IMG/VR virus record: IMGVR_UViG_3300037845_000029
Location: 1 to 53,725 of that record
Origin: a virus
Taxonomy: Duplodnaviria; Caudoviricetes
Strand: one strand, 5' to 3'
Length of the DNA stretch: 53,725 nucleotides
A model generated the notes under the pieces. The model saw only the letters and a list, made by a program, of their open reading frames with translations. It was not told the origin of the DNA and made no database searches. Positions 1,704 through 53,725 of this stretch are shown here, in pieces (position 1 is the first letter of the stretch; the number at the start of each line of letters is the position of its first letter). The position numbers were made by a program, and so were the translations under genes.

Positions 1704-2123
1704 ATGAGCGAATCCGACACCAACGGCGCGCCTTCCGAGCCGTTGACGGCCGAGCAGATGGGCCAAAAGGCCCTGGCTTTTGAAGACCGAGACCACGAAT
1801 TCACCACGGCCTTCGGCATGAAGGTCTGGGTCTGGCAGATGCCACTGGAAAACCGCGACAAATTCGACCTGTGGAACGCGGAATCACGGCAAAAAGAGGA
1901 CATCACGGCCTTCCGCACGCGGCTGGTCGTCGAAACCTGCTGCGATGAGCAGGGCAACCCGATTTTCAAGCTCGACGACATGCCGGCGCTGGCCAAAAAG
2001 GGCCACACGATCCACCGCCTGAGCAAAATGGCATTGCGGATCAACAAGATGCGGACGCAGGACCTGGAGGACGAGGAAAAAAACTCCGAAAGCGCTACCG
2101 CAGGCTCTTCGCCCTCCGGCTAG
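1704..2123 (+). CDS. Tail assembly chaperone (gpG-like)
   Basis: GGAG RBS. It ends in EEKNS, encoded by the slippery sequence GAAAAAAAC (2076-2084), and lies between the tail tube and tape measure genes. Confidence 0.8.
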   Translation: MSESDTNGAPSEPLTAEQMGQKALAFEDRDHEFTTAFGMKVWVWQMPLENRDKFDLWNAESRQKEDITAFRTRLVVETCCDEQGNPIFKLDDMPALAKKGHTIHRLSKMALRINKMRTQDLEDEEKNSESATAGSSPSG

Positions 2124-2503
2124 CGCTGGCCCTTGGCCGTTACAACGTCGATGAGATGCTCGCCGAGGCGCCGCCCAGGCAGCTCGACGAGTGGTTGGCC
2201 TATAACCGCATCGAACCCTTCGGCGCGCTGCGGGGCGACATGCAGGCCGGCATGATTTGCAACCACATCATCGGCGCGGCCGGCGGAGACTTCCGGCCGG
2301 TTCACGAGTACATTCTGAAATTCGGCCGCGACCCTGAAGACCAGATGGACCCCGACGAGATCGAACACCAACTGATGCTCTTCGCCCAGGCACACAACGC
2401 CCGGCTGGCGGAACAGGCCGGCGGCGCGATGAACGTCGATGTTCAGGGGATTCAGCGCGAGATTGCGGCGGCAAGGACCGTCGCGAGGGACGCCGCGCCA
2501 TGA
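2078..2503 (+). CDS. Tail assembly chaperone gpGT C-terminal part, reached by -1 frameshift
   Basis: The -1 frame after A AAA AAC is open to 2503 and reads KLRKRYRRLFALRLALALGRYNVDEMLAE...EWLAY, a gpT-like sequence. Confidence 0.8.
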   Translation, partial: KKLRKRYRRLFALRLALALGRYNVDEMLAEAPPRQLDEWLAYNRIEPFGALRGDMQAGMICNHIIGAAGGDFRPVHEYILKFGRDPEDQMDPDEIEHQLMLFAQAHNARLAEQAGGAMNVDVQGIQREIAAARTVARDAAP

Positions 2504-5283
2504 GCACGATTGCAAATATCACCGTCGCGCTCTCTGCCGACATCTCGAACTTCATTTCCGGCACGAAGAAGTCGGCCACGGCCATCAACGACCTGATGCG
2601 TGCGGCGAACAAGGCGACGACCGAGGGATTGTCGCCGCTTCAGCGCTACGAAGCGGCGATGGACCTGCTCGGGACGAAACTCTGGGAAGGCCAAGCCGCC
2701 GTGTTGGCTTACGACAAGGTCACGAAGTTTCTGGCCGAGACACTTGCCAAGGAAACTGCGGCTGTGAATGCCGCCGCAGAGGCTACTGCCAGGCTTCGCG
2801 CCAAACAGGAAGCTACGTTGCAAGTCGCTGTCGCAATGATGGCACAAATGGGCCAGGGTCGCTGGAACTCCTGGGAAGCCGGACTAGCGAACATTTCCAA
2901 TGCAACGCTTGCCGCAGAAGCAAGAACGAAGGCGCTATCTGCTGCTGCGACGGCAATGATGGCGCAAATGTCCAAGGGTTCATGGAACTCATGGGAAGCT
3001 GGGCTAGCTAATATCGCAAATGCCACTGCCGCAGCCGAAGCAAGAACGAAGGCACTGTCCGCGGCTGTGACGACAATGATGGCGCAAATGGGCCAAGGGC
3101 GTTGGAGCTCGTGGGCCGCAGGTCTGGCAAATATCACGAATGCCACGAACGCCGCCGCCGCCGCAAACCAGCGACTTGCGACAGTTGTTGTGCCAATGAT
3201 GGCGCAGATGGGCCAAGGTCGCTGGAACTCGTGGGCCGCAGGCTTGGCAAACATCACGAATGCTACCGCCGCTGCCAAAGCACGAATGGACGATGTCTCT
3301 AATGCGGGCCGCGGCGGTTTCCGAATGATCGCGTCGGCGATCAGCCCAACCATCGGCCAAATGGCGTCCTTCGGCGTCGGCGTCGGCGCGGCGATCTTGG
3401 CCATCAACGAGTTTAAGAACGCCATGTCGGCCATCGTCTCGACCGGCGTGAACCTGATGGTAACGTTCGAGAACGTCGAGGTATCGCTCTCGACGATGTA
3501 CAAATCCGCCGGCAAGGGAAAGGCGGTCTTGGAAGAGCTGAAGGACTTGGCCGCCAAGACGCCGATGGAGTTCCCTGAAATCGCGCGCTCGGCGAAGTCT
3601 CTGGCAGCCGTTGGCATCGAAGCGAGGGACCTGCAAGGTCATTTGAAGCTGATGACCGAACTGGCGGCTGGTTCGGGAACGAGCATCGAAGAATTGACGC
3701 GCATCTATACCCGCAACCTGATTCAAGGGCGGCAGTACACTCGCGACATCAACGAGTTCAGCAACGCCGGCATCCCGATTTGGACGCAACTCTCCAAGGT
3801 GATGAAGGTCTCCAATGACGAAGTGCATCAGATGGTGACGGACGGCAGGATCGGAGCGCACGAATTCCAAATGGCGCTGATCGAACTGGTAGACGCTGGC
3901 GGACGATGGCACGGCGCTTCCGAGGCCGCGCAGAAGAGCACGCAAGGGCTGATGGCGACCTTGAAGGATTACACAGGGTTCATTTTGGAGGGCATGACGA
4001 AGGCCACTGCGGAAGCCCTGCACTTCAAGGATGTCATTGGCGGAATCAACCAGTCGATGGCGCGAGAACGCGACGTATGGCAGACGACGACGGCCGACGC
4101 ATTTGGTTTCTTCGATGTTTTCGGTGCCGGATTAGGCTCGTTTTTGAGGTTCAATGAAACCCAAAAGAAAATCGCCGCCCTGCAAAAGATGGACGCGCAG
4201 GAGCGTTTGGATTACGACGCCGCAAAGAAGGCCAATGACCACGACGAAATGGATCGGGCGGCAAAGAAGATTCGCCAAATCCAGTTGATGATTGCCTTAC
4301 ATCAGGGTGAGATGCTGAGTGCGCAGGACGTAAAACTGCTGGCCGAGCGCGGCAAGGAAGAATTACCGACTCCCTTCAAGGGCGGCGACGCCGCCGCACG
4401 TGCCGAATTGGAGAAGAACAAGGAGTCGTTTGACAAGCTGCACGATGCGATGATTAAGGCGTGGGACGCAGCACGGTTCGGCAAGGAAGCGATGGACCGA
4501 CTCGCCTACGCCAACGCGGCGATCGCAGCCGGCAATCGGACAAGCATCGGCGAAATCATGGGTCATTACGACATGGTCGTAGCCGAGACGAAGGCGGCTG
4601 AAGAACGGACGAAGGCAGAAAAGGACGCCGACGCCGAACGAAAGAGACACACGGAGACCTATGACAAGTTGATCTTGAGCCTCAAGCTGAAGATCGCGCT
4701 GCTCGATAAGGATGCCGAAGCTGAGAGGGCTGCGCAATTGGCGGCCGAAGGAAACAACGAGACTGAAGTTCGTCGCATCCTGCTCCTAGAAAAGCAATTT
4801 CGAGTCAGGAAGGAGATGCTTGATGCCCAGAAGGAAGCCGCCGACAAGAACAAAAAGGATTTCGACGACATGAAGAGGCGGGCCGATGAACTCAAAAAGT
4901 CCCTCGAAACACCCGAGGCGGCACAGCAACGCAAGGAAAAGGAACTAGACAAGCTCTTCGACAAGGGACTGCTGACGCCCGATGAACGAGACGCCTTGCA
5001 AAACAAGATCGACCTGGAAATGCAGGAGGCACTGGAGCGCGATAAGAAAAAGACCTTCGGCCCGGCCGCCAAAGCGTTCACCCCCGCCGCCGAATTCGGT
5101 TCCAAGGAAGCCTACAGCATCATGGTCCGGGCGATGGGCGGCTTCGGCGGCAAGAACGAGGCCGAGAAGCAACGCAAGCGGATCATCGAAGAGTTGCGGC
5201 AGGCGAACATCGAAAACCGTCGGCGACACAACGAGAACAGGCAACCCAAGGTCATCAACATTGCCGGCGGGGGTGTGTTCTGA
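2500..5283 (+). CDS. Tail tape measure protein
   Basis: 927 aa, Ala-rich and helical. N-terminus IANITVALSADISNF; tape-measure domain FENVEVSLSTMYKSAGKGKAVLEELKDLAAKTPMEF; follows G/GT. Confidence 0.92.
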   Translation: MSTIANITVALSADISNFISGTKKSATAINDLMRAANKATTEGLSPLQRYEAAMDLLGTKLWEGQAAVLAYDKVTKFLAETLAKETAAVNAAAEATARLRAKQEATLQVAVAMMAQMGQGRWNSWEAGLANISNATLAAEARTKALSAAATAMMAQMSKGSWNSWEAGLANIANATAAAEARTKALSAAVTTMMAQMGQGRWSSWAAGLANITNATNAAAAANQRLATVVVPMMAQMGQGRWNSWAAGLANITNATAAAKARMDDVSNAGRGGFRMIASAISPTIGQMASFGVGVGAAILAINEFKNAMSAIVSTGVNLMVTFENVEVSLSTMYKSAGKGKAVLEELKDLAAKTPMEFPEIARSAKSLAAVGIEARDLQGHLKLMTELAAGSGTSIEELTRIYTRNLIQGRQYTRDINEFSNAGIPIWTQLSKVMKVSNDEVHQMVTDGRIGAHEFQMALIELVDAGGRWHGASEAAQKSTQGLMATLKDYTGFILEGMTKATAEALHFKDVIGGINQSMARERDVWQTTTADAFGFFDVFGAGLGSFLRFNETQKKIAALQKMDAQERLDYDAAKKANDHDEMDRAAKKIRQIQLMIALHQGEMLSAQDVKLLAERGKEELPTPFKGGDAAARAELEKNKESFDKLHDAMIKAWDAARFGKEAMDRLAYANAAIAAGNRTSIGEIMGHYDMVVAETKAAEERTKAEKDADAERKRHTETYDKLILSLKLKIALLDKDAEAERAAQLAAEGNNETEVRRILLLEKQFRVRKEMLDAQKEAADKNKKDFDDMKRRADELKKSLETPEAAQQRKEKELDKLFDKGLLTPDERDALQNKIDLEMQEALERDKKKTFGPAAKAFTPAAEFGSKEAYSIMVRAMGGFGGKNEAEKQRKRIIEELRQANIENRRRHNENRQPKVINIAGGGVF
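2836..3290 (+). repeat. About 4 x 120-bp (40-aa) tandem repeat within the tape measure gene
   Basis: ATGATGGC(A/G)CA(A/G)ATG starts at 2836, 2956, 3076 and 3196. Protein unit: MMAQMGQGRWNSWxAGLANIxNAT. Confidence 0.95.
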
Positions 5284-5624
5284 TGATCGACCTGCGCAGC
5301 ATGGAAAAAGGAACCGCCAAGGTCGAGCGCCCCAGCCGCACGACGGACCTGGCCAAGCTCTTCAAGGCCGCGCCGTCCCGCGAGCGCGAAGCTGCGCTCA
5401 TCGCATTCGTCAAGCGAACCAGCGTGACCTGCATCGGCATTGCCAAGGAAGAGCCGGGCAAGATCACGTTCCAGTGCGGCGTGCCCGACCCCGACGCGCC
5501 GCCAGATCAGCCGCGATTCATGCCAGCGCATTACGAATGGACCTACGACCTCGACACCGGCATCCTGAAAGCGGCGAAGCTTATCCCGCTCTGGCAGCCT
5601 AGCACGCAGGGAGGCCAGCCATGA
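5283..5624 (+). CDS. Hypothetical protein
   Basis: Start and stop overlap both neighbours (TGATG, ATGA). Confidence 0.6.
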   Translation: MIDLRSMEKGTAKVERPSRTTDLAKLFKAAPSREREAALIAFVKRTSVTCIGIAKEEPGKITFQCGVPDPDAPPDQPRFMPAHYEWTYDLDTGILKAAKLIPLWQPSTQGGQP

Positions 5625-6535
5625 GCGTTGTTTGGGCACATGAGCGAGCCGGCGGGCGCGGAGGGCGAGAAAGCCTCACCCCAGCGCGGACCTGGGCCAC
5701 ACGGAACTATACCCGTCACTTTCAGGTCTACACCAGCGACCAGAACGATGGGCCGCAGACCATCAGCGCCTCGGGGGCGCTCCCGTCGCTTCTGGACCTC
5801 TATATCGCCGGCAACGACGTCGACCTGGGGGCCGTCTGCTCGAACATCAGCTACAACCAACCCAACAACAACCAGCCGAAAATTTGGGAAGTTGTCTGCG
5901 AGTACGAGGGTGCCGACAACCCTCTGACCAGGCCGCACTTGATCCGCACGGGGTTCGCCACCCGCGAGCGGATCGTCTGGCAGGACGTGTACCAAGGCCC
6001 GCGCGGCAACGCCGTGCCGATCGTCAACTCGGCCGGGGTCTATTTCGACCCCCCGGTGACGATCAACGAGAACCAGCCGCTCGTCTCCATCGAGCGCAAC
6101 GAAGTCATCACCATCGACCCGGTGGCCTTGGACCTGGCCTACGGCAACACGACCAACGCCGACTTCTTCTTCGGTGCGGCACCCAATACAGTGCTTTGCC
6201 TGGGGATCACCGGCGGCGACGCCTTCGAGGGCGGTATCTGGTACTGGAATATGCACTACGAATTCTGCTACCGTTCGGATGGCTGGGTGAGATACCTGCT
6301 CGACCAGGGCTTGATGTGGTGGGATGCAACGATCCCAGCCGGCGGCACGAAACCCAACGGCTACACGGATGCTACTGACTCCAAAGGAAACGTCACCACG
6401 GAGCCGCAAGCCCTCGACGGAAAGGGTAAGCTATTGGCGACGACGCTTGGGCGATTGCCTGGCCCGAACGACTTCATTTTCCTTCCCTACAATGTTTTCG
6501 TCAGCGTGCCCTTCGCGCCGCTGGCACTGCCATAA
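5621..6535 (+). CDS. Probable tail-tip/distal tail structural protein
   Basis: 304 aa, beta-rich, GGAGG RBS, shortly downstream of the tape measure gene. Function from synteny only. Confidence 0.55.
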   Translation: MSVVWAHERAGGRGGRESLTPARTWATRNYTRHFQVYTSDQNDGPQTISASGALPSLLDLYIAGNDVDLGAVCSNISYNQPNNNQPKIWEVVCEYEGADNPLTRPHLIRTGFATRERIVWQDVYQGPRGNAVPIVNSAGVYFDPPVTINENQPLVSIERNEVITIDPVALDLAYGNTTNADFFFGAAPNTVLCLGITGGDAFEGGIWYWNMHYEFCYRSDGWVRYLLDQGLMWWDATIPAGGTKPNGYTDATDSKGNVTTEPQALDGKGKLLATTLGRLPGPNDFIFLPYNVFVSVPFAPLALP

Positions 6536-21054: not shown

Positions 21055-21255
21055 ATGCCAAGAAAGAACGCGTCAGCACAGGCCCTTGCGAAACTCCGCT
21101 GGAAGGACAAGACCCAGGCAGAACGGGCCGCAACCGGGCAACGACTCAAGAAGGCCCGCGCCGCGTCGAAGAAGCTAACGCCGAAGCGCCGGAAGGAAAT
21201 CGCCGAGATCGCTGCCAAGGCACGGTGGGCCAAGCACAGGAATGGAGCAGCTTGA
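21055..21255 (+). CDS. Small basic protein
   Basis: LTPKRRKEIAEIAAKARW pattern, common in small basic DNA-binding phage proteins. Confidence 0.65.
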   Translation: MPRKNASAQALAKLRWKDKTQAERAATGQRLKKARAASKKLTPKRRKEIAEIAAKARWAKHRNGAA

Positions 21256-23037: not shown

Positions 23038-25140
23038 ATGAGCCAATACTGGATTCTGGACGAGCAGCGCAAGCCGAAGCCGGTAACTGATGTTATCGAA
23101 TGGGCGACGTGGTTCGAGCACGGCGAGCGCAAGATCAAGCAAAGCGACATCGGCGGCGTGCATGTCTCGACCGTGTTCATTGGCATCGACCACCAATTCG
23201 GCAACGGACCGCCGCTCCTCTACGAGACGATGATTTTCGGAGGACCACGCGACGAGTCGCAAGCACGCGCCAGCACCGAAGCCGAAGCGTTGGATCAGCA
23301 CGAAGAAGCTTGCCGCCTTGCACGAGAGAAAGCCGAGATCAAGCGGCCGTGAAACCCATCTTGATTCTGCCCGGCCGAGACGATTACGAACACGATTTTT
23401 CTTGAGCTTGAAGTGTATGACCGATTGACGAAGTACGTGGCGCGGGCTCTGCAAACCGAAAAGGCAAATCGAGGCGACTGATGACCAATGACCAAAAGAA
23501 AACGCTCTGCGCCGGCTGCCGAGACAACTTCTACAACATCCCCGGCAACAGCACGACCGGCGAATGCTGGTTGCTGGCGAACGCCAAGCCCGTCGAACGC
23601 ACGAGCGTCGGCACCTGGCAGAACCCGCCGTATCACTGGCAGCCACAGCAGACCTTGAGTTGCCATCATCCCGAAGGGCGCCACTGGATCAAGGACGACG
23701 ATCCGAGGCTCGACACCGATCCGTACTGGGTCGCAAAACGCAAGGAGATTGACGGGGCGCTAGGCGCCGACTCCGTTCCCGACGCCAAGCGAGGATACAC
23801 CCCATGACGACCGACAAGAGCGAGACCCCACTGAACGGCCACCTGCGCCGCTTGGCAGGGCTGATCGACTACGACTGGGGCTGCTACCTGATTGAAGCAG
23901 CCGAGGAAATCGAGGCGTTGGTTGAAGCCGTGAAGCTCGTTCAAGGATTCGACTGGCGCCTCGACGAGAGCGCCTACGGCATTGAAATCAAGAGGCGAGC
24001 CGAAGCCGCCGTCACTAGGGCAACTACGGCCTATCGCTCACCTGCCGCCATGCTCGCCGAGAAGAGACGAAGGGATGCCGCAGAATGATCCGAACCTACT
24101 GCGACGGATGCGAAAAGGAAATCACCGAGGCCAATGCCTGCGCCGGAGGGCCGATCCATTGCGATTGGCGGCTTGGCACGACCGTCAAAAAGCGAGGCAA
24201 GAAGCTTCTAGTCGAAGTAATCATAACGACGGACGATGTTGCCAATACTGGCCACTGGTGCAAGTATTGTGTGCTCGACGCCTTATACGCGCTCGACGAC
24301 CGAGTAAAGCAGGCGAGGAACAAACGATGACCGACTTCTCCACCATCCTGGCCCGCGACATCACAGCGCGGCGGATTAGCGTCGAGCTAGTCCGTGAGGC
24401 GTACAGCGTAAGCGGGCTGAAACCGCAAGCGTTTTGTACCGTCTCGCACGACTTTCAATGTGGTTGCCCAGTAGGCGCCATCCACCTGTGCTCTAAACCG
24501 ACTCAGGATGACGCGACCGAAATATCGAACGAGGCGACGATCTGGGCGGCAGAAACGTTCGGCAAGTCATACACCAGAGGGTTTATGACCGGTTTTGATA
24601 CGCATAGTGCCGGATGGAACCCATACGACGGCGGCAGAGAGGGCTTTATCGATGGCCGTGCCGCCCGTGAAGCCGTGCTGGGGAAGGGAGAGGCGGGAAC
24701 CCAAGGGGCGACCAAGTGAGCATCCGCGACGGCCGAGTAACGCTCTGGTGCGATACCGAGGATTGCGACGAGAACATCGACGCTTCGCTCGTCGCGCTGG
24801 CACGACCAGGAAACCACAAGCAGCTTTGGGAGGAGCCTGATTACGATTACGCAATTCGTATTCGCGGCTGGTCAATCGTCGGACCACGGCAGGAGACCTA
24901 CTGCCCGTCCTGCACGAAGAAGCGAGCCAGGGCAGCCAAGAGAGCGGCGAACAAGACCGCGAGGGAGGCCGGATGAACGATCGCGAAATCGCAACGACGC
25001 GCGGCGACCGAGAGATTGCCGACCGCGTGCGGTTCCACTACGCGATGCACTTGGCAGCATGGGTCACGCACCTAGCATCTATCGCTATGCCGGTGGAAAT
25101 CATCGACGCTCAAATGGCTTTCGAGGCGAACGCGACATGA
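23038..25140 (+). other. Run of small, mostly coupled hypothetical ORFs (23038-23352, 23481-23807, 23804-24088, 24085-24330, 24327-24719, 24716-24976, 24973-25140)
   Basis: Consecutive ATGA/GTGA start-stop overlaps from 23481 on; several have CxxC motifs. Confidence 0.6.
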
Positions 25141-25353: not shown

Positions 25354-26358
25354 ATGAGCGTCATCCTCACGAAGCCTGAGCACGCTTTCGAGAAGTGCCA
25401 ATCGTGCGGCAAGCCCCCCGACCAACTCACCGCCGCTTGCCCACAGGCCGAGACGATCGACGAGCGCGCCGCCTGGCTAGCGCTTCGCCAGCAGTCGATC
25501 GGCGCTTCGGAGACGGCCGCCGCGCTGGGGGTCGATCCCTATCGCTCGCCAACCGATCTTTGGATGACCAAGACTGGGCTTGCCGAGCCCGAGGACATCG
25601 GCGGCAAGCTGCCTGTCAAAATCGGCAACCGTCTGGAACAACTCATCATCGAGGAGTTCGCCGAGCAGAGCGGCCGACTTGTGACGCCCTGGCCGGCGTT
25701 CCACCTCGTGCGCCATCCGTCGCGGCCTTACGTTTCATGCACGCCAGACGCCGAGGAGTGGAATCCGGATTGCCTGGAAGAACGCATCGGACTTGTGCAG
25801 GTCAAGGCGGTTTCGGCCTACATGGACCGGCACTGGAAGCCGGGCGAGGCGCCGTTGCACTACCAGGTGCAATGTCAGGCCGAGCTTGCCGTGGTCGGTT
25901 GCGACCATTCGACGCTCGTGGCGCTAGTCGGCAATAGCCATCTAAGATGGCTGGACCTGCCGCGCGACGACCACTTCATCGGCGTCATGCTCGACCGCCT
26001 GGAAGAATTCTGGCACCACGTCGAGACGCGAACGCCGCCGGCAATCGACTGGTCGGAAAGCTGCACGCGAGCGCTCGAGCGACTCCATCCGAAAGATCAA
26101 GGGCATTCCGTGGAACTGCCGCCGGAAGCCGCCGAGTGGGACGCCGAGCTTGCCGAGATCAAGGGGCGAATCAAGGAGCTTGAGCAGGCCCGCGACCTGC
26201 GCGAGAACCAACTACGGGCCGCTATCGGCCCGGCGTCGTTCGGCGTGCTCCCGGACGGCGGCAAGTGGTCGTGGAAGTGGCAGGAGCGGAAGGGGTACGT
26301 CGTTCAGCCGACAGAATTCAGGAAGTTGAGCCGTGTCAAAGGCAAGTCGAAGGAATGA
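25354..26358 (+). CDS. YqaJ-family viral recombination exonuclease
   Basis: WLALRQQSIGASE, GVDPYRSP, GNRLE, CTPD and PLHYQVQCQ. Confidence 0.9.
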   Translation: MSVILTKPEHAFEKCQSCGKPPDQLTAACPQAETIDERAAWLALRQQSIGASETAAALGVDPYRSPTDLWMTKTGLAEPEDIGGKLPVKIGNRLEQLIIEEFAEQSGRLVTPWPAFHLVRHPSRPYVSCTPDAEEWNPDCLEERIGLVQVKAVSAYMDRHWKPGEAPLHYQVQCQAELAVVGCDHSTLVALVGNSHLRWLDLPRDDHFIGVMLDRLEEFWHHVETRTPPAIDWSESCTRALERLHPKDQGHSVELPPEAAEWDAELAEIKGRIKELEQARDLRENQLRAAIGPASFGVLPDGGKWSWKWQERKGYVVQPTEFRKLSRVKGKSKE

Positions 26359-36919: not shown

Positions 36920-37861
36920 GTGGCTATGCCCAAGGATGGCCAGCGAAGATGCTGGGTGGACGTGGCAGAGGGATGGATCAAGATCAGAGGGAACCTGATG
37001 TCTTCCCTGAAGCTCATCAGGCTCGCAAGGCGGCTCGGCGAGCAGTCTGAATTCCGCCTATGGCTGTCTCCAATCGGCGATCCGCGCAACAACGGCGCAA
37101 CATCCGCGCAACAAATAAGTGAGCCGGCGTTGCGCTGTGTTGCGCTTTCTTTACTAACCGTGACGTGGAGCGAGGCAAGATCACAAGGCAAATTTGACGG
37201 CGACGACTTGATCCTTGAAGGATTGTATCTTTCCGATCTTGACCAGCTTGCCGGGGCGCCAGGACTTGGTAAGGCGATGGAAACGGTTGGTTGGGCGGTT
37301 CAAATGAAAAACCCGACGTGCGTTAAGTTGCCTAATTTCAAGGAGTTCAACGCTCCGATGACGCCTGCTGAACGCATGAAAAAGATGCGTTCTGGTCGTG
37401 AAGATGACCGCGACGACCGCGCAACAAACGCGCAACATGGCGCGCAACCTGAGAAGGAGAAGGAGAAGGAGACTAAGAGAAAGAGATCTCAGGAGACTCC
37501 TGAGTCTCATTCGTCTCCCGTTTTTGATTTTTCTTCGGCATGCGCACCCATCGCCGAGAGGCTCTACGAAGTCACAGGATGCACCAAGCCGAACGACCCG
37601 TTCCTTTGGCAAATAGCCGTCCTCGTGAACGAAGGCGCAATCACGGAACTAGCCATCAAGGAATCAATCGAGAGTGTCGGCTTGTGCGCAACCGGCGAGC
37701 GCGTGCCATACCTTCGCGTCTGCCTTGAGCGGCACGTCGGCGGAAAACCGAAGCTCAAGGAAATGCTCGCAAGGGTCCGGCTGACACGCGCCTTTCCGCG
37801 GTCGCCGCCGCAACCGAGTGAACCCTGGATTACTCCCGCGACCAAGAGGCCAAACCCATGA
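36920..37861 (+). CDS. Putative replication initiator (lambda O-like; start uncertain)
   Basis: WIKIR near the N-terminus and an AERMKKMR...EKEKEKE linker; directly upstream of DnaB; internal GCGCAAC repeats. Confidence 0.65.
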   Translation: MAMPKDGQRRCWVDVAEGWIKIRGNLMSSLKLIRLARRLGEQSEFRLWLSPIGDPRNNGATSAQQISEPALRCVALSLLTVTWSEARSQGKFDGDDLILEGLYLSDLDQLAGAPGLGKAMETVGWAVQMKNPTCVKLPNFKEFNAPMTPAERMKKMRSGREDDRDDRATNAQHGAQPEKEKEKETKRKRSQETPESHSSPVFDFSSACAPIAERLYEVTGCTKPNDPFLWQIAVLVNEGAITELAIKESIESVGLCATGERVPYLRVCLERHVGGKPKLKEMLARVRLTRAFPRSPPQPSEPWITPATKRPNP

Positions 37862-39312
37862 CGGACGAATCCGAAACTCGCCTTCCAGCCCAGAACCTCG
37901 ACGCCGAGCGTGGCGTGCTGGGGGCGTGCCTCCTCGACCACGAGCGCATCGACGACGTAGCAACCGTGCTACGCGTCGAGGATTTTTACCTGCCGCCGCA
38001 CGGGTTCATCTTCCAGGCGATGCTCGAAATGTCGCGTGACAACAAGCGGCCGGACCCAACGCTGTTGGCAAACTACCTCAAGAAAAAGGGGCAGCTTTCG
38101 GAACTGGCTGACGTTCACGAAGTCGCCGACGCCGGTGAAAAGAACATCGCCGGCCGGCTGTTCCTCGACGAGCTTTCGCAGTGCGTGCCGACGGCGCACA
38201 ACGCGGTATGGTACGCGAAGCTCGTGGCCGAGGCGTCCCAGATGCGGCGGCTTGAGATGGCCGGGTACGAGATCGTGCGGGTGTCGCGGTTCGACGACAT
38301 GGAACCGGCCGAGCGGTTGGCCAAGGCCGAGTCTGAAATCTTTCGGGTGGGCGAGCTTCACGCTGGCAAGGAAGCGAAGCATGTCGGCGACGTGTTGTCG
38401 GCGGCGGTGGCGTCGATCGAAGCGCGTCAGGACCGCGAGGGCCTATCCGGTCTTTCGACTGGATACGCCGACGTCGACAAACTGACGGGCGGCTTGAAGA
38501 ACGGCGAACTGGTGATCTTGGCCGGCAAGCCCGGCATGGGAAAATCGGCCTACGCGACGAACGTTGCTCATCGCACGACGATGATCGGCGACATCAAGGC
38601 GTCGGTCCTTTTTGTATCACTCGAAATGAGCGAAGGGGAGCTTGGCGAGCGGCTGCTCTGCACGCACGGCCGCATTGACGGGCACAAGTGCCGCAACGGA
38701 TTCCTGGGCGAGATGGAGCGTGTAAAGATCCGCGAGGCCAACAACGCGCTTGCTGGGGCGAAGCTCTACATCGACGCCACGCCTGGTCGGTCGATGCCGG
38801 AAATCTCGTCGCTCTGCCGGCGGCACAAGCGGCGGCATGGGCTCGACCTGGTGATCGTCGATTACCTGCAAATCATCGCGGCCGAGGACCGCCGAGCGCC
38901 GCGCGAACAGCAGGTTGCAGCGATCGCGCAACGGCTTAAGAACATGGCGCGAGAACTCGACCGACCCGTGCTCTGCCTCGCGCAGTTGAACCGGCAGACC
39001 GACGCGGCCCGCGGCAACCGGCCGACGTTGACGCACCTCAGAGAATCTGGTGCGATCGAGCAGGAGGCTGATCAAGTCTGGTTCGTCCATCGCGACGACT
39101 ATTTTTTGCCGGCGGGCGAAGAAAGAGAAAGGGTCAAGGGCACTGCCGAGCTGATCGTGGCCAAGAACCGCAACGGCCCGACAGGTGAGGCGAATCTCGT
39201 TTGGCTTGACTACTGCACGCGGTTCGAGTCGATGTGCAAGAACGAGCGCACGTATGACGAAAGCGATTGGCCGAAGCATGAAGAACCAGGAGGCAACTGG
39301 TGGGAACGCTGA
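37858..39312 (+). CDS. dnaB: Replicative DNA helicase DnaB
   Basis: PAQNLDAERGVLG, Walker A AGKPGMGKS, SLEM, IVDYLQ, LAQLNR, LRESGAIEQEAD and KNRNG. Confidence 0.95.
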   Translation: MTDESETRLPAQNLDAERGVLGACLLDHERIDDVATVLRVEDFYLPPHGFIFQAMLEMSRDNKRPDPTLLANYLKKKGQLSELADVHEVADAGEKNIAGRLFLDELSQCVPTAHNAVWYAKLVAEASQMRRLEMAGYEIVRVSRFDDMEPAERLAKAESEIFRVGELHAGKEAKHVGDVLSAAVASIEARQDREGLSGLSTGYADVDKLTGGLKNGELVILAGKPGMGKSAYATNVAHRTTMIGDIKASVLFVSLEMSEGELGERLLCTHGRIDGHKCRNGFLGEMERVKIREANNALAGAKLYIDATPGRSMPEISSLCRRHKRRHGLDLVIVDYLQIIAAEDRRAPREQQVAAIAQRLKNMARELDRPVLCLAQLNRQTDAARGNRPTLTHLRESGAIEQEADQVWFVHRDDYFLPAGEERERVKGTAELIVAKNRNGPTGEANLVWLDYCTRFESMCKNERTYDESDWPKHEEPGGNWWER

Positions 39313-47759: not shown

Positions 47760-47784
47760 CGCCGTTTGTCACACCTGTTACAAT
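47756..47784 (+). promoter_or_regulatory. Sigma70-type promoter, leaderless transcript
   Basis: TTGACG-17-TACAAT with ATG at 47791. Confidence 0.7.
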
Positions 47785-47790
47785 CCCGCG

Positions 47791-47979
47791 ATGTGCTTGA
47801 CCGACGTGCTGCAAAAGCTGGCCGACGATGGATTGCCGCTGACGAAACGGCAAATCCGCTACGCGATCAAGGCCGGGCACGTCTCGCGGCCCAGGCTCAA
47901 CGGCAGCCGCGCGTTCGACTTCACGGCGGCGGATGTCGGCGAGCTGCGAAGGCACTTCAAGCGGAAGGCGAAACGATGA
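47791..47979 (+). CDS. Small MerR/excisionase-like DNA-binding protein
   Basis: LTKRQIRYAIKAG...P...SRAFDFTAADVGELRRHF. Confidence 0.6.
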   Translation: MCLTDVLQKLADDGLPLTKRQIRYAIKAGHVSRPRLNGSRAFDFTAADVGELRRHFKRKAKR

Positions 47980-48938
47980 CCGATTTTGAAAAATACGTTG
48001 CGGCCTGCACTTATCCCGGCGTACTCGACGAGCGAGCGGTTGACCGGCATCTTCGCGAGTACCTTTCCGCGATAGGTGTCGAGCGAAAGGTCATTCGGCT
48101 GAATCGTGGATGGTCGGTCGACGATCATCCTGAGCTACGCGGCTACGTCAATGCTATTCTGGACGATTTTGCGACGCGCGCCGCCCTCGACGCCCGCGAC
48201 GCCCGCGACGCCCGCGCCGCCCTCGACGCCCTCGACGCCCGCGACGCCCGCGACGCCCGCGCCGCCCTCGACGCCCTCGACGCCCTCGACGCCCGCGCCC
48301 GATTCTGCTCATGGTGCATCCATCGAAGCAACTGGTACTATTCGTTCGACTTGTCATGGATCGCGACGACGCAATTCGGTGCCGCCCAGCTTGGTAGGCG
48401 GATACCCTGGGCGCGACCAATCTTCGACGCATTTTTAGCGGGAGTTTGGTTTCTGCACTGGACCGAAGGCGCATTGTTTTGGGTCTCAAAACCGACGATA
48501 CGACTTGAGACAATCGGCGGCACTCGACGCCCGCACTGCGAAAGCGGCCCAGCGTTGGAATCGGATATCGAGCCGCTATACTTTTGGCATGGTGTGCTCG
48601 TCGATTCATACGTGGTCACAGAACCATCGCGCATCACGACGGAGGAAATCCGAAGTGAGACGAGCGAAGAAGTCCGCCGCGTGTTGATCGAACGCTTTGG
48701 CTGGGAGCGTTGGCTCCAAGAGGAAAAGGCAAAAATCCAGCACATGAGATTCAACGAGCGGGACGGGCAGTGGGAGCGGCTGTATCGACTCGACGACGGG
48801 CAGCAGCGCGTCGTATTGACGGACCCTTCGACGGGACGCCGTTATGCACTTGGCTGCCCAGCGGAGATAGCGACGTGCGAAGAAGCACAAAACTTTTTTT
48901 CACACGGCCTTGACAAGTTGGCCATTCACCGCAGCTGA
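47976..48938 (+). CDS. DUF6745-like phage protein with low-complexity insert
   Basis: HCESGPAL...LYFWHGV.V...I..E...EVRRVLIERFGWERW...DPSTGRRY.L..P. Confidence 0.7.
   Translation: MTDFEKYVAACTYPGVLDERAVDRHLREYLSAIGVERKVIRLNRGWSVDDHPELRGYVNAILDDFATRAALDARDARDARAALDALDARDARDARAALDALDALDARARFCSWCIHRSNWYYSFDLSWIATTQFGAAQLGRRIPWARPIFDAFLAGVWFLHWTEGALFWVSKPTIRLETIGGTRRPHCESGPALESDIEPLYFWHGVLVDSYVVTEPSRITTEEIRSETSEEVRRVLIERFGWERWLQEEKAKIQHMRFNERDGQWERLYRLDDGQQRVVLTDPSTGRRYALGCPAEIATCEEAQNFFSHGLDKLAIHRS
48178..48300 (+). repeat. 9-bp-unit tandem repeat (GCC-CTC/CGC-GAC/GCC)
   Basis: Encodes AALDARDARDARAALDALDARDARDARAALDALDALDARAR. Confidence 0.9.
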
Positions 48939-49445: not shown

Positions 49446-50042
49446 ATGACCCCGACGCAAATCACCGACCTTCCATATCGCTTGAGGGAGCTATCGAAGC
49501 TCCGCGCTTTGGTGGCCGACATCGCCCGCGACCGCAACCTGTCTCCCGACGAGAAAACCGGCGCGTGGATGTGCGACAGCGAGTTGTTCCACCGCATGAC
49601 GGCCTTGAGTTCATCGGCCGACTGCGGGGGCGTGCAGACCTGCCTGTCGTTGCGCGAGGCCGGGCAAATTGAATGCGGGTTGTTCGCCGTCGCGTTGGCC
49701 GAGTTGCGCCGAGCCGAGTGCTTGAACGACGGCAAGCGCAGCGGAATCCGCGAAGTGCTGATTGCAGTCGAGTCGCGGATGCTGATGATGGCTGAAGGTC
49801 CGAAGCTGCTTATCGCGGCGATGACCGACCAGGCCGACGCACGCGAGAACATGCAACGGCTGGCGGAACGCATGGCGAACCAGGAGACGGCCACCGAGGG
49901 CCGGCGGGCTGATGATGGAGCGATAGCCGCGCACGGCCAAGATGGACGATGCGCGGCATTGGTTCGCTGGACGGCTGTGGTTTTTCTGCTGACCGCGCTG
50001 AGCGGCGCGGCCGTGTTGGTCGAATGGTTTGCCGGGAGGTAG
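49446..50042 (+). CDS. Hypothetical protein with C-terminal TM helix
   Basis: WTAVVFLLTALSGAAVLVEWF. Confidence 0.55.
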   Translation: MTPTQITDLPYRLRELSKLRALVADIARDRNLSPDEKTGAWMCDSELFHRMTALSSSADCGGVQTCLSLREAGQIECGLFAVALAELRRAECLNDGKRSGIREVLIAVESRMLMMAEGPKLLIAAMTDQADARENMQRLAERMANQETATEGRRADDGAIAAHGQDGRCAALVRWTAVVFLLTALSGAAVLVEWFAGR

Positions 50043-50044
50043 CG

Positions 50045-50365
50045 ATGCCGACGAAGGTTTACGGATCGAGCGACGACCTGATCGAAGTCGAAGGCGGCAA
50101 GTGCGCAGGCGAAGTCGGATGCTACGGCACCGATGACCGCGAGCATGGCGTGCTTTTGCTGTTCAGCGACGGCACGCTGCTTGAGGTCAAGTACGGCAAG
50201 AACGACGATGCGATTTGGGAGGTCAAACTCGTCAAGAAGGGCAAGCAGTTCGACCGTATCGACCAATGCGACGACGCTGATGCCGACCCCTATAGCGACG
50301 TGGCGCACTTCAAAGCCGATTTGGATTGGTGCTACGCGGCCAAGGAATGGGAAAAAGTCGCATGA
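50045..50365 (+). CDS. Phage hypothetical protein
   Basis: KVYGSSDDLIEVEG...FSDGT motif; GGAGG RBS. Confidence 0.7.
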   Translation: MPTKVYGSSDDLIEVEGGKCAGEVGCYGTDDREHGVLLLFSDGTLLEVKYGKNDDAIWEVKLVKKGKQFDRIDQCDDADADPYSDVAHFKADLDWCYAAKEWEKVA

Positions 50366-50859
50366 CCCCCTCGACACCCGCGACCAACATGACTCCGCAC
50401 CTACGCTGGATGATCCGCAGAGATCTCGTCGAAGTTCTCGAAATTGAGCGGCAGGCGTTCGACCATCCGTGGAGCGAAGACGACTTCATGCGCGTGCTCC
50501 GTCAGAAGAACTGCATCGGCATGGTGGCGGAATTCGACGAGCAAGTGATCGGCTTCATGGTCTACGCGCTCGACAGGACCGACATCACGATCCTCGACTT
50601 CGCGGTTGAACCGGAGCACGTCCGCAAGGGAATCGGCCGCGCGATGGTCGACAAGCTGAAGGCCAAGCTCTATCCAGGCCGCAGACGACGGCTGAACTTG
50701 CTGATCCGCGAGACGAACATCGGCGCGCAACTGTTCTTTCGGGCAATGGGGTTCAAGGCCATCAAGGTCGTGCGCGACGCCTTCAAGGAACCTGCCGGCG
50801 AGGCGGCCTACCTGATGCAATACAGGCTGTCAGTCGAAGCGGGGAGACAGACAGCATGA
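50362..50859 (+). CDS. rimI: RimI-like GNAT acetyltransferase
   Basis: HLRWMIRRDL.EVLEIE...PWSEDDF...NCIGMVAE...AV.P...RKGIG...RETN..AQLFF...GF. Confidence 0.85.
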   Translation: MTPSTPATNMTPHLRWMIRRDLVEVLEIERQAFDHPWSEDDFMRVLRQKNCIGMVAEFDEQVIGFMVYALDRTDITILDFAVEPEHVRKGIGRAMVDKLKAKLYPGRRRRLNLLIRETNIGAQLFFRAMGFKAIKVVRDAFKEPAGEAAYLMQYRLSVEAGRQTA

Positions 50860-51320
50860 CCACAACTCGCCCACCTTTGACCGACCGCCAGCGCCAGGTG
50901 CTCGACCTGATCCGCGCCGGCAACGGCTATCCGCCGAGCGTCCGCGAAATCGCAAGGAAGATGGGCACGCGATCGGCGAATGGGATGATGGTTCATCTGC
51001 GCGCCCTGGAGCGCAAAGGCTACATCCTTCGCGAGCAGTTCGCGAGCCGCGCGATCATGCTGGTACGACCGGAGCGGTTTTTTCCCGACGTCGACGGCCA
51101 GCCGGCCGTCCCAATGCGGCAGTCGGAACTGGCGCCGATGATGGACCTCGACGGGGAGACGCATGGAGTTTACAAGATGATCGACGGGAAGTGCGGAATC
51201 CCGCACATTCGCGAGGGAGACATCCTACTCACAGAGCGCGGCTTCAATCATTTGCGCAGACCCATAAGTCTCGGCGCGATCAAGGCTCGTTCGCTGGCCG
51301 TCATCCGGGTGCTCCCATGA
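50856..51320 (+). CDS. LexA-like repressor (DNA-binding domain; degenerate C-terminus)
   Basis: LTDRQRQVLDLI...GYPPSVREIA...HLRALERKGYI...SRAI. Confidence 0.8.
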   Translation: MTTTRPPLTDRQRQVLDLIRAGNGYPPSVREIARKMGTRSANGMMVHLRALERKGYILREQFASRAIMLVRPERFFPDVDGQPAVPMRQSELAPMMDLDGETHGVYKMIDGKCGIPHIREGDILLTERGFNHLRRPISLGAIKARSLAVIRVLP

Positions 51321-51493
51321 GTTTCAGTTTCCTTTGGCGGCACGCCGGCTTGATCTCGCTTTGGACGGAACGCTGGTCACTGCACATCGGCGTCAAGTTT
51401 CAATTCTGGCAGTGGGAGCCGCATGACCGAGACCTGCTTTACACGACAACGGGTGTTGGACCGGCGCTGCTGCTGGCGTGGGAGAACGGATGA
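51317..51493 (+). CDS. Small hypothetical protein
   Basis: Coupled on both sides (ATGA at 51317; stop overlaps the effector ATG). Confidence 0.5.
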   Translation: MSFSFLWRHAGLISLWTERWSLHIGVKFQFWQWEPHDRDLLYTTTGVGPALLLAWENG

Positions 51494-53361
51494 TGGCAAA
51501 ATTTCACGACTCCGACCCGTCGATCAACTGGCTGGCCCACGCGAAAGCGCCGACGACCGGCAAAGAGCTGGTCGAGGCGCAGTTCTCGGCGGCTCATCGC
51601 TACTACAACACGCTTATCGAAATCGAGCGCTGCCGCCAGCAAAAGTACCTTGAGCTGCGACGCAAGCTATTCCCGGCGTTGGAAGCCGCCGAGGTCGAAT
51701 ACGCCAGGCTTGACGGCGAGTTGTCGGCGGTTCGAGACGAGATCAAACAGGCCAACGCCAAGACGCACAAACGCTCGACCGGCACGTCGGAGCAGCGCGC
51801 CGAGATCAAGAGGCTCAAGGGCGAGCGAACGGCGTGCGCGAAGGTCGCCAAGGAAGTCCGCGAGAGGGCCAAGGATTCGGCCGCGCTGGCGAACGGCGCC
51901 GAGGCCATCAACGACGAGGCCCGCGCCGCCGTGCGCGCGGCACGGGCTGCGACTGAAACATTCTGGTGCTCATATTTGCAGGTGGAAGCGGCCGTCCAAC
52001 AGGCGAGCAAGGATTCCAAGCCGCTCCCGCCGCGCTTCAAGCGCTGGACCGGCGACGGAACCGTGTCGGTGCAACTGCAAGGCGGCCTGTCATGGTCCGG
52101 GCTGCTTGCCGGCGACGACACGCGCGCCAGGCTCGTCGCGCGAGATTGGTCAAGCATCGAGGCGAACACGCGGGCGCCGAATGGGAAACACGACAAGCCG
52201 AGTCCCAGCGGCAGGCGCGCCAAGCGACGATTTGATCTTTGGCTTCGCGTCGGCAGCGACGGTCGCAAGCCGGTCTGGGCCGTTTTTCCGATCGTCCTCT
52301 ATCGTGAACCGATAGGCGCGGATGAGTTGCTGGTTAAGTGGATTCACGTCGACCGCATCAAGCGGGCCACCGCGTATGTCTGGCAGGCTCGTTTCGTATT
52401 GGCCAAGAAAAGCGGCTGGGCCAAGACCTGTTCGCCGTCCGGCACGGTCGGCGTCGACGTCGGCTGGCGATTGGTGCCCGATGGCCTGCGCGTCGCGTAC
52501 TGGGTAGGTAGCGATGGACGTGAAGGGCAACTTGTCTTACCGCAGGAGTTGCTCAACGCCAAGGACGACATGGAGGCCATCCAGACGATTCGCGACAAGA
52601 ATTTCAGCGCGATGAAGCTGCGCTTGGCGCGCTGGTTCAAGCGTGCGCAGGGCGAACTCGTAATGGAGGGCGAGCTGCGGCTGCCGACGGTGGCCGCCAA
52701 GTTGCCAGCGTGGATGACGGATTCGCCTGGACTGGACAGGGACGGAAAGCCAAAAGCGTCGATCGTCGCCGGTATGCCGCATTGGAAGAGCCCTGGCCGG
52801 GCGGAATCGCTCTATCGTCAATGGCGCGACAACCGTTTCACCGGAGACGACGATGGCTTTCGCATGTTGAGCGACTGGCGCAACGGCAGCGGACGGTCGC
52901 ACGAGCACGGGGACTTGCACCTTTGGCGCTTCCAAACGGGTAGGCGGATTCGGGCCTTGAAGCGGCGCAAGGACATCTACCGGAAGTTCGCGCGCGAGTT
53001 GGCCCAGAATTACGCCGTCTGCCGCGTGGAGAAACTGAATCTGGCGGAGATGCGGCGGCGACCGGAAGCCGAAGATGACAAGGCAAGTGGCGCAGTGGTC
53101 ATGTTCCGCAACCTGGCGGCCAATGGCGAGCTGCTGGAATGCCTGCGGCAAAGCGGGATGGCGGTCGAGGCATTGCCGGCGGAGAACACGACGCGCATGC
53201 ACTTGGCCTGCGGCCACATCAGCAGTTGGTCGGATGAAGAGCGCGCGGCGGTGATGGTGACGTGCCAATCGTGCGGTGAAAGCTACGACCAGGACGCTCA
53301 AAGCGCTGCTCTTTTGCTGGCCGGCGGTGTCGCGAGCGTCGAGGTGGTAGGCACTGTTTGA
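51490..53361 (+). CDS. cas12m: Compact type V CRISPR effector, Cas12m (V-M/V-U1)-like
   Basis: About 623 aa. N-terminal AHRYYNTLIEIER, long coiled coil, FWCSY and RFKRWTGDGTVSVQLQ as in Cas12m. RuvC-I GVDVGWR, RuvC-II VEKLNL, zinc finger HLAC...CQSC, RuvC-III YDQD. Array directly downstream. Confidence 0.85.
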   Translation: MMAKFHDSDPSINWLAHAKAPTTGKELVEAQFSAAHRYYNTLIEIERCRQQKYLELRRKLFPALEAAEVEYARLDGELSAVRDEIKQANAKTHKRSTGTSEQRAEIKRLKGERTACAKVAKEVRERAKDSAALANGAEAINDEARAAVRAARAATETFWCSYLQVEAAVQQASKDSKPLPPRFKRWTGDGTVSVQLQGGLSWSGLLAGDDTRARLVARDWSSIEANTRAPNGKHDKPSPSGRRAKRRFDLWLRVGSDGRKPVWAVFPIVLYREPIGADELLVKWIHVDRIKRATAYVWQARFVLAKKSGWAKTCSPSGTVGVDVGWRLVPDGLRVAYWVGSDGREGQLVLPQELLNAKDDMEAIQTIRDKNFSAMKLRLARWFKRAQGELVMEGELRLPTVAAKLPAWMTDSPGLDRDGKPKASIVAGMPHWKSPGRAESLYRQWRDNRFTGDDDGFRMLSDWRNGSGRSHEHGDLHLWRFQTGRRIRALKRRKDIYRKFARELAQNYAVCRVEKLNLAEMRRRPEAEDDKASGAVVMFRNLAANGELLECLRQSGMAVEALPAENTTRMHLACGHISSWSDEERAAVMVTCQSCGESYDQDAQSAALLLAGGVASVEVVGTV

Positions 53362-53452
53362 CCACGAGAAATAAGGAGTTACGTCACGAAAAAAAGCACC
53401 GCTCGCAAATTGCTACTTGGCGCTTTGGTACGAAAGGACTTATGGTAGGAGC
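53362..53452 (+). promoter_or_regulatory. CRISPR leader
   Basis: 91-bp AT-richer spacer between effector and first repeat, with two AAGGA(G/C)TTA(C/T)G IHF-like motifs. Confidence 0.6.
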
Positions 53453-53725
53453 GTTGCAGTGCCTGCGCGGAGGCTTTGTGTCTGCGACGTTGTGGGCATG
53501 GAGCATTTCGTCGATTGCGACGATTGTTGCAGTGCCTGCGCGGAGGCTTTGTGTCTGCGACGTTGTGGGCATGGAGCATTTCGTCGATTGCGACGATTGT
53601 TGCAGTGCCTGCGCGGAGGCTTTGTGTCTGCGACGTTGTGGGCATGGAGCATTTCGTCGATTGCGACGATTGTTGCAGTGCCTGCGCGGAGGCTTTGTGT
53701 CTGCGACGTTGTGGGCATGGAGCAT
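53453..53725 (+). CRISPR. CRISPR array: 4 x 36-nt repeat, identical 37-nt spacers (truncated by window end)
   Basis: Repeat GTTGCAGTGCCTGCGCGGAGGCTTTGTGTCTGCGAC at 53453, 53526, 53599 and 53672. Spacer GTTGTGGGCATGGAGCATTTCGTCGATTGCGACGATT occurs three times plus a partial fourth. Confidence 0.85.

Follow-up and report, generated by a model that had tools for sequence, protein, structure and literature searches.

The virus record IMGVR_UViG_3300037845_000029 (Duplodnaviria; Caudoviricetes) in IMG/VR encodes, at its right-hand end, a CRISPR effector followed by a short CRISPR array. The record is linear, with 53,725 bases and 60% GC, and we analyzed all of it (hereafter, the window). The effector is a true Cas12m protein, so the locus is of type V-M, and it belongs to the clade whose RuvC catalytic residues are Asp, Glu, and Asp (D-E-D). 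This phage-encoded module probably acts as an RNA-guided repressor that binds DNA without cutting it and that carries one guide in amplified form. It is unusual mainly because the guides in its array are all copies of one spacer; otherwise, it is a further example of a recently described kind.

The gene and the zinc finger of its product are at:
51490-53361, plus strand: cas12m, encoding a D-E-D type Cas12m effector of 623 amino acids
53200-53211 and 53263-53274, plus strand: zinc finger, H571-x-x-C574 ... C592-x-x-C595

From its first GTG, the open reading frame (ORF) spans 51478-53361 (627 amino acids). The ATG at 51490 is the most likely start, because it overlaps the stop codon of the preceding 58-amino-acid ORF and because the four closest homologs begin with MKFH. 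When we compared the protein to chains in the Protein Data Bank (PDB) with phmmer, we found 23vw_A (E = 4.2e-51), which was deposited as "CRISPR-associated DNA-binding protein Cas12m", as well as 8hio_A (E = 1.7e-23) and 8pm4_A (E = 3.9e-16), with residues 23-618 covered. Both 8hio and 8hhl are structures of Cas12m2, which was matched at about 1e-23.

We built an AlphaFold2 model from 60 aligned sequences (mean predicted local distance difference test score 90.1; predicted template modeling score 0.85). In Foldseek, the best matches of this model were Cas12m2 (8hhl; template modeling (TM) scores of 0.75/0.79) and GoCas12m (8pm4; 0.76/0.78), and 8hio was also within 0.75-0.79. Scores for other families were at most 0.42/0.59 for Cas12f, 0.36/0.59 for TnpB, and 0.24-0.33 for CasPhi; Cas12f and CasPhi ranked below all of the Cas12m chains. 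The long helices at residues 25-175 of the model fit the REC "Roof" of GoCas12m (PMC11013384). The protein thus has the size and architecture of Cas12m: 623 amino acids, a helical REC insertion, a C-terminal RuvC domain, and a zinc finger. Three of the finger's ligands (C574, C592, and C595) are invariant in the 60 aligned sequences. For the first ligand (position 571), at least 90% of these sequences have Cys, and the subclade of the window's protein has His. An earlier note, which was made by a model from the sequence alone, had described a Cas12m-like protein of about 623 amino acids with an HxxC...CxxC finger; both descriptions hold, and sequence search and structure prediction both group the protein with Cas12m instead of with the TnpB proteins of insertion sequences (IS).

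A protein search returned 92 relatives. The closest four (P0001-P0004) are 98%, 61%, 51%, and 50% identical, and the 50% one is named from a metagenome-assembled genome (MAG) of Candidatus Dormibacteria. A scan of metagenomes confirmed 153 relatives, of which 80 were kept. Species-representative genomes contain 10 relatives, all from MAGs of several phyla and all at 34% identity or below. In IMG/VR, from which the window's own or very near records were possibly left out, the repeat had no matches and none of three candidates for the protein was confirmed.

The nearest relative whose locus we read, L005 (46% identity), has cas12m, a degenerate array with four non-identical repeats and spacers of unequal length, and then directly the packaging genes terS and terL (2070-6101). 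This module is phage-borne and sits at the junction before the packaging genes. By analogy, the layout of L005 suggests that the window's array also lies directly before packaging genes, beyond the end of the record. We compared ten proteins that flank the module in the window or in L005 with the other loci and found none of them there.

The array is laid out as follows:
53362-53452, plus strand: leader, 91 bp from the stop codon to the first repeat
53453-53725, plus strand: CRISPR array, ended by the end of the record
53453-53488, 53526-53561, 53599-53634, and 53672-53707, plus strand: 36-nt repeats, four exact copies
53489-53525, 53562-53598, and 53635-53671, plus strand: identical 37-nt spacers
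53708-53725, plus strand: partial fourth copy of the spacer

In the array, a 73-nt unit recurs in perfect tandem (3.7 units, with 100% matches), so every visible spacer is the same 37-mer. Four exact copies of a repeat are not expected by chance (0 in 100 shuffles), and the 91-bp leader and the array of 36-nt repeats are both where the earlier note had placed them. The same note had reported no cas1, cas2, cas4, or tnpA in the window, which our searches with positive controls confirmed: Cas1, Cas2, and Cas4 had no profile match in these 53.7 kb, which end within the array. A Y1 transposase was likewise absent from the window by profile search with positive controls (serine recombinases were not searched for).

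Arrays are common next to the related genes. Among 90 related loci, 65 have the complete end of the gene and at least 300 nt of downstream sequence. An array of spaced repeats begins within 500 nt of the stop codon in 51 of these 65 (median 38 nt), and in at least one of the loci without a detected array, L005, a degenerate array can be made out by eye.

We aligned 54 distinct repeats from the family and asked how well they fit a pseudoknot with a 3-bp stem and a 5-bp stem. The two sides pair in 94.0% of cells, as compared to 66.6% in shuffled repeats, and 0 of 500 shuffles reach the observed value. If the partner columns are slid as a control, then at most 42.9% of cells are paired. Both sides of a pair have changed in 117 cells (34.5 in shuffles), and the covariation score is 0.707 (0.217 in shuffles). 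Covariation across the family thus supports the hairpin and the GCC/GGC pseudoknot that had been proposed from the window's repeat alone. The stems, -28..-26 with -17..-15 and -23..-20 with -6..-3, are at the same positions as in the CRISPR RNA (crRNA) of PmCas12m, whose mature form has ~33 nt of repeat and ~17 nt of guide and whose protospacer-adjacent motif (PAM) is 5'-YTN (bioRxiv 2026.03.26.714355). We found no anti-repeat of 10 nt or more elsewhere in the window, and thus no sign of a trans-activating crRNA (tracrRNA). As judged from these sequences, the repeat would supply a pseudoknot handle for a single predicted crRNA without a tracrRNA, as in other type V-M arrays. The only Rfam match inside the array was a sub-threshold one to a plant microRNA, which we took to be chance.

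We also placed the k=31 contigs of four soil-metagenome runs (X1-X4) on 51490-53725. All depths below are means per contig. Runs X3 and X4 contain parts of the gene only and none of the array. In run X1, the depth of a contig of the gene (52078-53482) is 8.6, and this contig breaks off after 30 nt of the first repeat, as a branch there would lead one to expect. The depth of the gene in run X2 is ~4.7.

Both X1 and X2 contain a 94-nt contig with an additional unit: 28 nt of an unmatched spacer, a repeat with one changed letter, and 29 nt that are unlike the array. These 29 nt match positions 23590-23618 of the window exactly, on the minus strand, which is not expected by chance. The preceding G in the contig corresponds to the G at 23619, which by reading would extend the match to 30 nt.

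The matching site is:
23590-23619, minus strand: protospacer, inside an ORF at 23481-23807 (plus strand, 108 amino acids)

No repeat adjoins this site in the window, so it is a true protospacer. The ORF that contains it has no match in Pfam or PHROG. The contig ends exactly where its 31-mers would become shared with the phage genome, which would fit a match of at least 31 nt. On its 5' side, the protospacer is flanked by ...TTCT/G or ...TCTG/C (the slash marks the boundary for a repeat length of 36 or 37 nt, respectively); these flanks are T/C-rich like the published PAMs of Cas12m, which is not diagnostic. The window contains no match to the 28-nt spacer on the other side of the unit, and IMG/VR contains none to the 30-nt protospacer, again with the window's own or very near records possibly left out.

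Does this additional unit belong to the phage? It could be in the distal part of the phage's own array, or it could be in the array of a host or a rival phage, in which case it would reflect immunity or conflict between phages instead of self-targeting. We consider these two possibilities to be evenly balanced. The unit's repeat is one letter off the phage's; it is normal for a host array to contain spacers directed at co-resident phages; the mini-arrays of viruses are mostly directed at related viruses (PMC11656645); and variants of the effector exist, namely the 98%-identical protein P0001 and a divergent copy of the gene in run X4. These points favor a host or a rival as the owner. On the other hand, the depth of the unit tracks the phage's in both runs (11.9 versus 8.6 in X1 and 3.3 versus ~4.7 in X2), and the non-identical repeats of L005 illustrate that a one-letter variant can share an array with the other form. 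Also, a phage with a Cas12m homolog, Rctr197k (GenBank KX853510.1), has an array in which 1 of 15 inter-repeat stretches matches its own genome at 24/25 nt (175442-175466; E = 3.5e-6).

The divergent gene copy in run X4 (52840-53396) is in two contigs, with 13 and 10 differences, some of them in the C-terminal stretch where P0001 differs. These differences, together with P0001, imply that at least two variants of the effector circulate in soils. We noticed a few other spacer matches among the related loci. A spacer of L081 (at 8975) matches 36/36 nt of L077 (7729-7764), ~380 nt downstream of the array in L077, which has the same repeat; this may reflect a conflict between related elements that carry Cas12m. 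In L088, a contig from a Peptococcaceae MAG, the array spacer at 12161 matches 24/25 nt at 21069-21093, 9 kb downstream. And a spacer of L016 (at 3549) has 25/28 matches at both 1-28 and 456-483, upstream of its own cas12m and near a short-period repeat (776-1002), which could be a regulatory site or chance.

The soil runs also bear on the repeated spacer. In run X1, a contig of 103 nt consists of the repeat, the spacer, and 30 nt of the repeat again (73+30, which is the form of a cycle), and its depth is 35.7, or ~4.2x that of the gene. Run X2 has the same kind of 103-nt contig at a depth of 8.1, or ~1.7x that of the gene. If the unit were single-copy, then the ratio should be ~1.1x. We are fairly confident that the duplication of the spacer is real, with two to four copies.

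Alternatively, the identical spacers could be an artifact, with the assembly looping through the 36-nt repeat and the true array having one copy of this spacer and then different ones. The record does end within the array, and the periodic stretch of 273 nt equals 127 + 2x73, which a loop in a k=127 graph could have left behind. The pattern is also atypical: 63 related loci have 368 spacers, and no spacer occurs twice in its locus. But the cyclic contig arose independently at k=31 and exceeds the single-copy ratio in both runs, and a loop at k=127 would itself require ~200 nt of true periodicity in the reads. We therefore think that an artifact is unlikely. As for the literature, our remark that the pattern is unusual draws on one preprint, in whose passages an amplified guide in a type V-M array is not described (10.1101/2023.03.03.530964).

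The RuvC domain has its catalytic residues at:
52456-52458, plus strand: RuvC-I Asp323 (gac), in GVDVGW; faces the H of ALHLGW in Cas12m2 and the D of AIDLGW in 23vw_A
53029-53031, plus strand: RuvC-II Glu514 (gag), in RVEKL; faces Asp485 of Cas12m2
53293-53295, plus strand: RuvC-III Asp602 (gac), in DQD; both D600 and D602 are kept without exception in 60 aligned relatives

All three residues are encoded where the earlier note had located them. Asp485 of Cas12m2 is a residue of the RuvC catalytic site (Omura 2023, PMC10442227), and 23vw_A, the closest chain with a solved structure, also has D, E, and D at the aligned positions. We aligned the window's protein with full-length relatives from the protein search and from the translated loci, without fragments of under 480 amino acids or identical copies (162 sequences in all). 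D-E-D is present in 121 of the 162, and the remainder have NED, NDD, NAD, HDD, or other combinations. In a FastTree phylogeny, the window's protein clusters with P0001-P0004 and L005 (support of 1.0), inside a clade that is almost wholly DED. MsCas12m (read from L096) and the protein from Rctr197k are DED as well.

As relayed by Omura 2023, Cas12m has been split into four clades, two of which have DED, and the triad states listed for the clades are HEK/HQK, HDD, DED/NED, and DED/DND/NED (PMC10442227). The triad D323-E514-D602 is one of these described states. The earlier note's statement that the characterized V-M effectors have a degenerate RuvC domain is therefore incomplete, as four variants with D-E-D have been assayed (PMC11013384). 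The intact D-E-D triad is ordinary for the clade of the window's protein, and it is not new for Cas12m.

The intact triad had suggested to the earlier note that the protein might be a catalytically active intermediate between TnpB and Cas12m, that is, an RNA-guided nuclease for double-stranded DNA (dsDNA). All three catalytic residues are indeed present, D-E-D is widely kept, D600 and D602 do not vary, and Omura 2023 says of clades 3 and 4 that they "may facilitate" two-metal hydrolysis (PMC10442227). In the published assays, though, dsDNA cleavage was found for none of eight Cas12m variants, four of them with D-E-D, while PAM-dependent DNA binding was seen for six of the eight (Bigelyte 2024, PMC11013384). 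Cas12m2 did not regain cleavage when its HDD was changed to DED (PMC10442227). MsCas12m and GoCas12m showed no cleavage of RNA and no collateral cleavage either, and the D274A mutant of MsCas12m still processed pre-crRNA (PMC11013384). Also, 23vw_A has D-E-D and yet was deposited as a DNA-binding protein, and cutting would be self-destructive if the phage-matching spacer belongs to the phage's own array. Because the D-E-D variants that were assayed did not cut and the reversion in Cas12m2 failed, an intact triad does not mark a cutting intermediate, and the window's protein sits within a clade of Cas12m that is dominated by D-E-D. We consider an active nuclease to be quite improbable, and the conservation of D-E-D gives no specific reason to expect that this protein cuts DNA. 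From its characterized relatives, we infer that it binds dsDNA and silences without cleavage. Thus, where the earlier note proposed a phage-borne RNA-guided repressor or nuclease, the repressor is the best reading and the nuclease is disfavored.

It is very unlikely that the protein is an ordinary TnpB of the IS200/IS605 or IS607 type, or that the module is part of host DNA next to a prophage: it does sit at the extreme end of the record, and it has weak matches to TnpB models (NF038280, 23.5 bits; NF040570, 17.3 bits) and to the Pfam families OrfB_IS605 (15.9 versus a cut-off of 30.5) and Cas12f1-like_TNB (also under the cut-off), but the curated cut-offs for the two TnpB models are 350 and 100 bits, the TM scores for TnpB are low, there is a CRISPR array in place of an omega-RNA and no Y1 transposase, cas12m is chained by overlapping stop and start codons to genes with PHROG matches, and L005 has the same module immediately before terS and terL.

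Several observations weigh against our interpretation of the module as a repressor with an amplified guide. Run X1 may be the sample behind the record, so it is not independent for the copy number, and the ratio in X2 is only ~1.7. The conservation of D-E-D hints that some catalytic role, which the published assays may have overlooked, has been under selection. The record stops within the array, so the downstream genes and the remainder of the array are out of sight. A simple promoter scan found no sigma-70-like sites in 50000-53725, which includes the leader. Finally, with up to 3 mismatches allowed, the whole spacer matches nothing in the window besides the array's own copies.

Other searches for the target gave similar results. 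In the window, the first 20 nt of the spacer (up to 3 mismatches) match only the array; the best hit of a seed-anchored and longest-word search had 4 mismatches in 18, as shuffled seeds also do; and partial matches to promoters were likewise absent. The first 24 nt have no exact matches in the viral contigs of IMG/VR or in the species-representative genomes, a codon-wobble pattern of the spacer's reverse complement has no matches in the viral contigs of IMG/VR, and blastn hits of the spacer to collections of phages and plasmids all had E values of 1 or more. The target of the amplified guide is probably a gene of the host or of a rival element, or else it is in the unseen 41% of the phage.

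We propose that cas12m would be transcribed with the phage operon that precedes it, and the array either along with the gene or from the leader. As the simple scan detected nothing like a promoter in the leader, cas12m and the array may be co-transcribed. The array transcript would be cut into crRNAs with a pseudoknot handle of ~33 nt and a guide of ~17-20 nt. The complex of Cas12m and crRNA would find matching dsDNA that is flanked by a PAM, remain bound to it, and block transcription or replication without cutting. With no adaptation genes in view, the array would be a fixed or slowly changing set of guides, and the roughly two- to four-fold amplification of one guide in its leader-proximal part would raise the dose of that crRNA.

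A more speculative possibility, which we would not bet on, combines these features. The phage's own array would continue past the end of the record and would include both the roughly four-fold guide, against a target in the host or a rival, and the guide against the phage's own gene at 23481-23807. Non-cutting Cas12m would then be a programmable repressor that serves in take-over or exclusion as well as in self-regulation, with unequal recombination tuning the dose of the guide.

The window adds a compact, 623-amino-acid D-E-D Cas12m, from a soil phage of roughly the 90-kb class, to a family under development for CRISPR interference, base editing, and epigenome editing. The protein is also relevant to the question of why D-E-D has been conserved among Cas12m effectors for which the published assays showed no cutting. 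The amplification of a single guide and the phage-matching spacer make two ideas testable: that phages use binding-only CRISPR effectors as regulators, and that the copy number of a guide is under selection. The classification of the module is unchanged either way.

CheckV estimates that the record is ~59% complete, so ~41% of the phage is unseen. Genes in the rest of the window and just upstream of cas12m include:
2500-5283: tail tape-measure gene
25354-26358: RecE-like exonuclease
37858-39312: DnaB-like helicase
50326-50859, plus strand: GNAT acetyltransferase (Pfam Acetyltransf_1, E = 1.4e-13)
50856-51320, plus strand: protein with a LexA DNA-binding domain (Pfam LexA_DNA_bind, E = 7.4e-21) and without a recognizable peptidase domain
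51317-51493, plus strand: ORF of 58 amino acids, whose stop codon overlaps the ATG of cas12m at 51490

The GNAT gene, the LexA-domain gene, the 58-amino-acid ORF, and cas12m are chained by ATGA overlaps of stop and start codons (50326-51493 and into cas12m), and the genes that are joined in this way include ones with PHROG matches, so cas12m appears to be the final gene in an operon of the phage. The window also encodes several DNA methyltransferases and one HNH endonuclease; no terminase, portal, or capsid genes are in view within its 53,725 bases. It has two other tandem repeats, both within genes: a 120-nt repeat (3.8 copies, 75% matches) at 2834-3286 in the tape-measure gene, and a 9-nt repeat (13.4 copies) at 48177-48297 in the ORF at 47766-48938 (DUF6745), where it encodes a run of ARD/ALD tripeptides.

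How does the module compare to known systems? The best structural matches, Cas12m2 of Mycolicibacterium mucogenicum and GoCas12m (8hhl, 8hio, and 8pm4), have the same order of domains and the same crRNA logic, but they have an H-D-D triad instead of D-E-D, and they are only ~19% identical to the window's protein in the structural alignment. The D-E-D variants of type V-M, namely MsCas12m, TfCas12m (PMC11013384), and 23vw_A, are more alike: they are homologous over their full length, are of similar size (~600 amino acids), and share the D-E-D triad, the zinc finger, repeats of 36 nt with a pseudoknot handle, and the lack of a tracrRNA signal, with no adaptation genes in view in the window either. 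Still, MsCas12m is only ~27% identical to the window's protein. These variants are from plasmids or chromosomes, whereas the window is from a phage, has His instead of Cys as the first zinc ligand, and has just one spacer among its visible guides.

Among phages, one parallel is MvCas12m from the myxophage MV-1, which is 610 amino acids long, has D-E-D, and is next to an array, with no cas1, cas2, or cas4 (bioRxiv 10.64898/2026.09.14.751636). No protospacer was found for its spacers, as for the repeated spacer in the window. The array of MV-1 has eight different spacers instead of one that is repeated. The preprint calls MvCas12m the first phage Cas12m, although GenBank already holds a homolog in Rctr197k, a 197-kb member of the Caudoviricetes. 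That protein, whose gene is annotated as "similar to transposase", is 29.8% identical over 91% of the query and has DED. Its gene is directly before an annotated CRISPR region whose repeat has the same family pattern as the window's. Unlike the window, this much larger phage has 16 copies of the repeat and 15 different inter-repeat stretches. The sites that we noted in KX853510.1 (L097-L100) are 110803-112317, 119281-119535, and 175442-175466; another CRISPR region, which has a different repeat, is annotated beside a "transposase-like protein".

More broadly, a 2024 review describes type V-M as enriched in plasmids and as encoded by some prophages, too (PMC11656645). Together with Rctr197k and the 2026 preprint, this means that phage-borne type V-M loci are already known. 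Tables S1 and S2 of Bigelyte 2024 list 134 variants of Cas12m, found partly via IMG/VR (PMC11013384), and they may already include the window's protein or a close relative.

For the repeated guide, there is a precedent among the regulatory mini-arrays of prophages, one of which has three repeats with two spacers that are mostly identical (Shmakov et al. 2023, 10.1101/2023.03.03.530964). Those mini-arrays have no effector of their own and use the host's type I-F system, whereas the phage in the window brings its own Cas12m.

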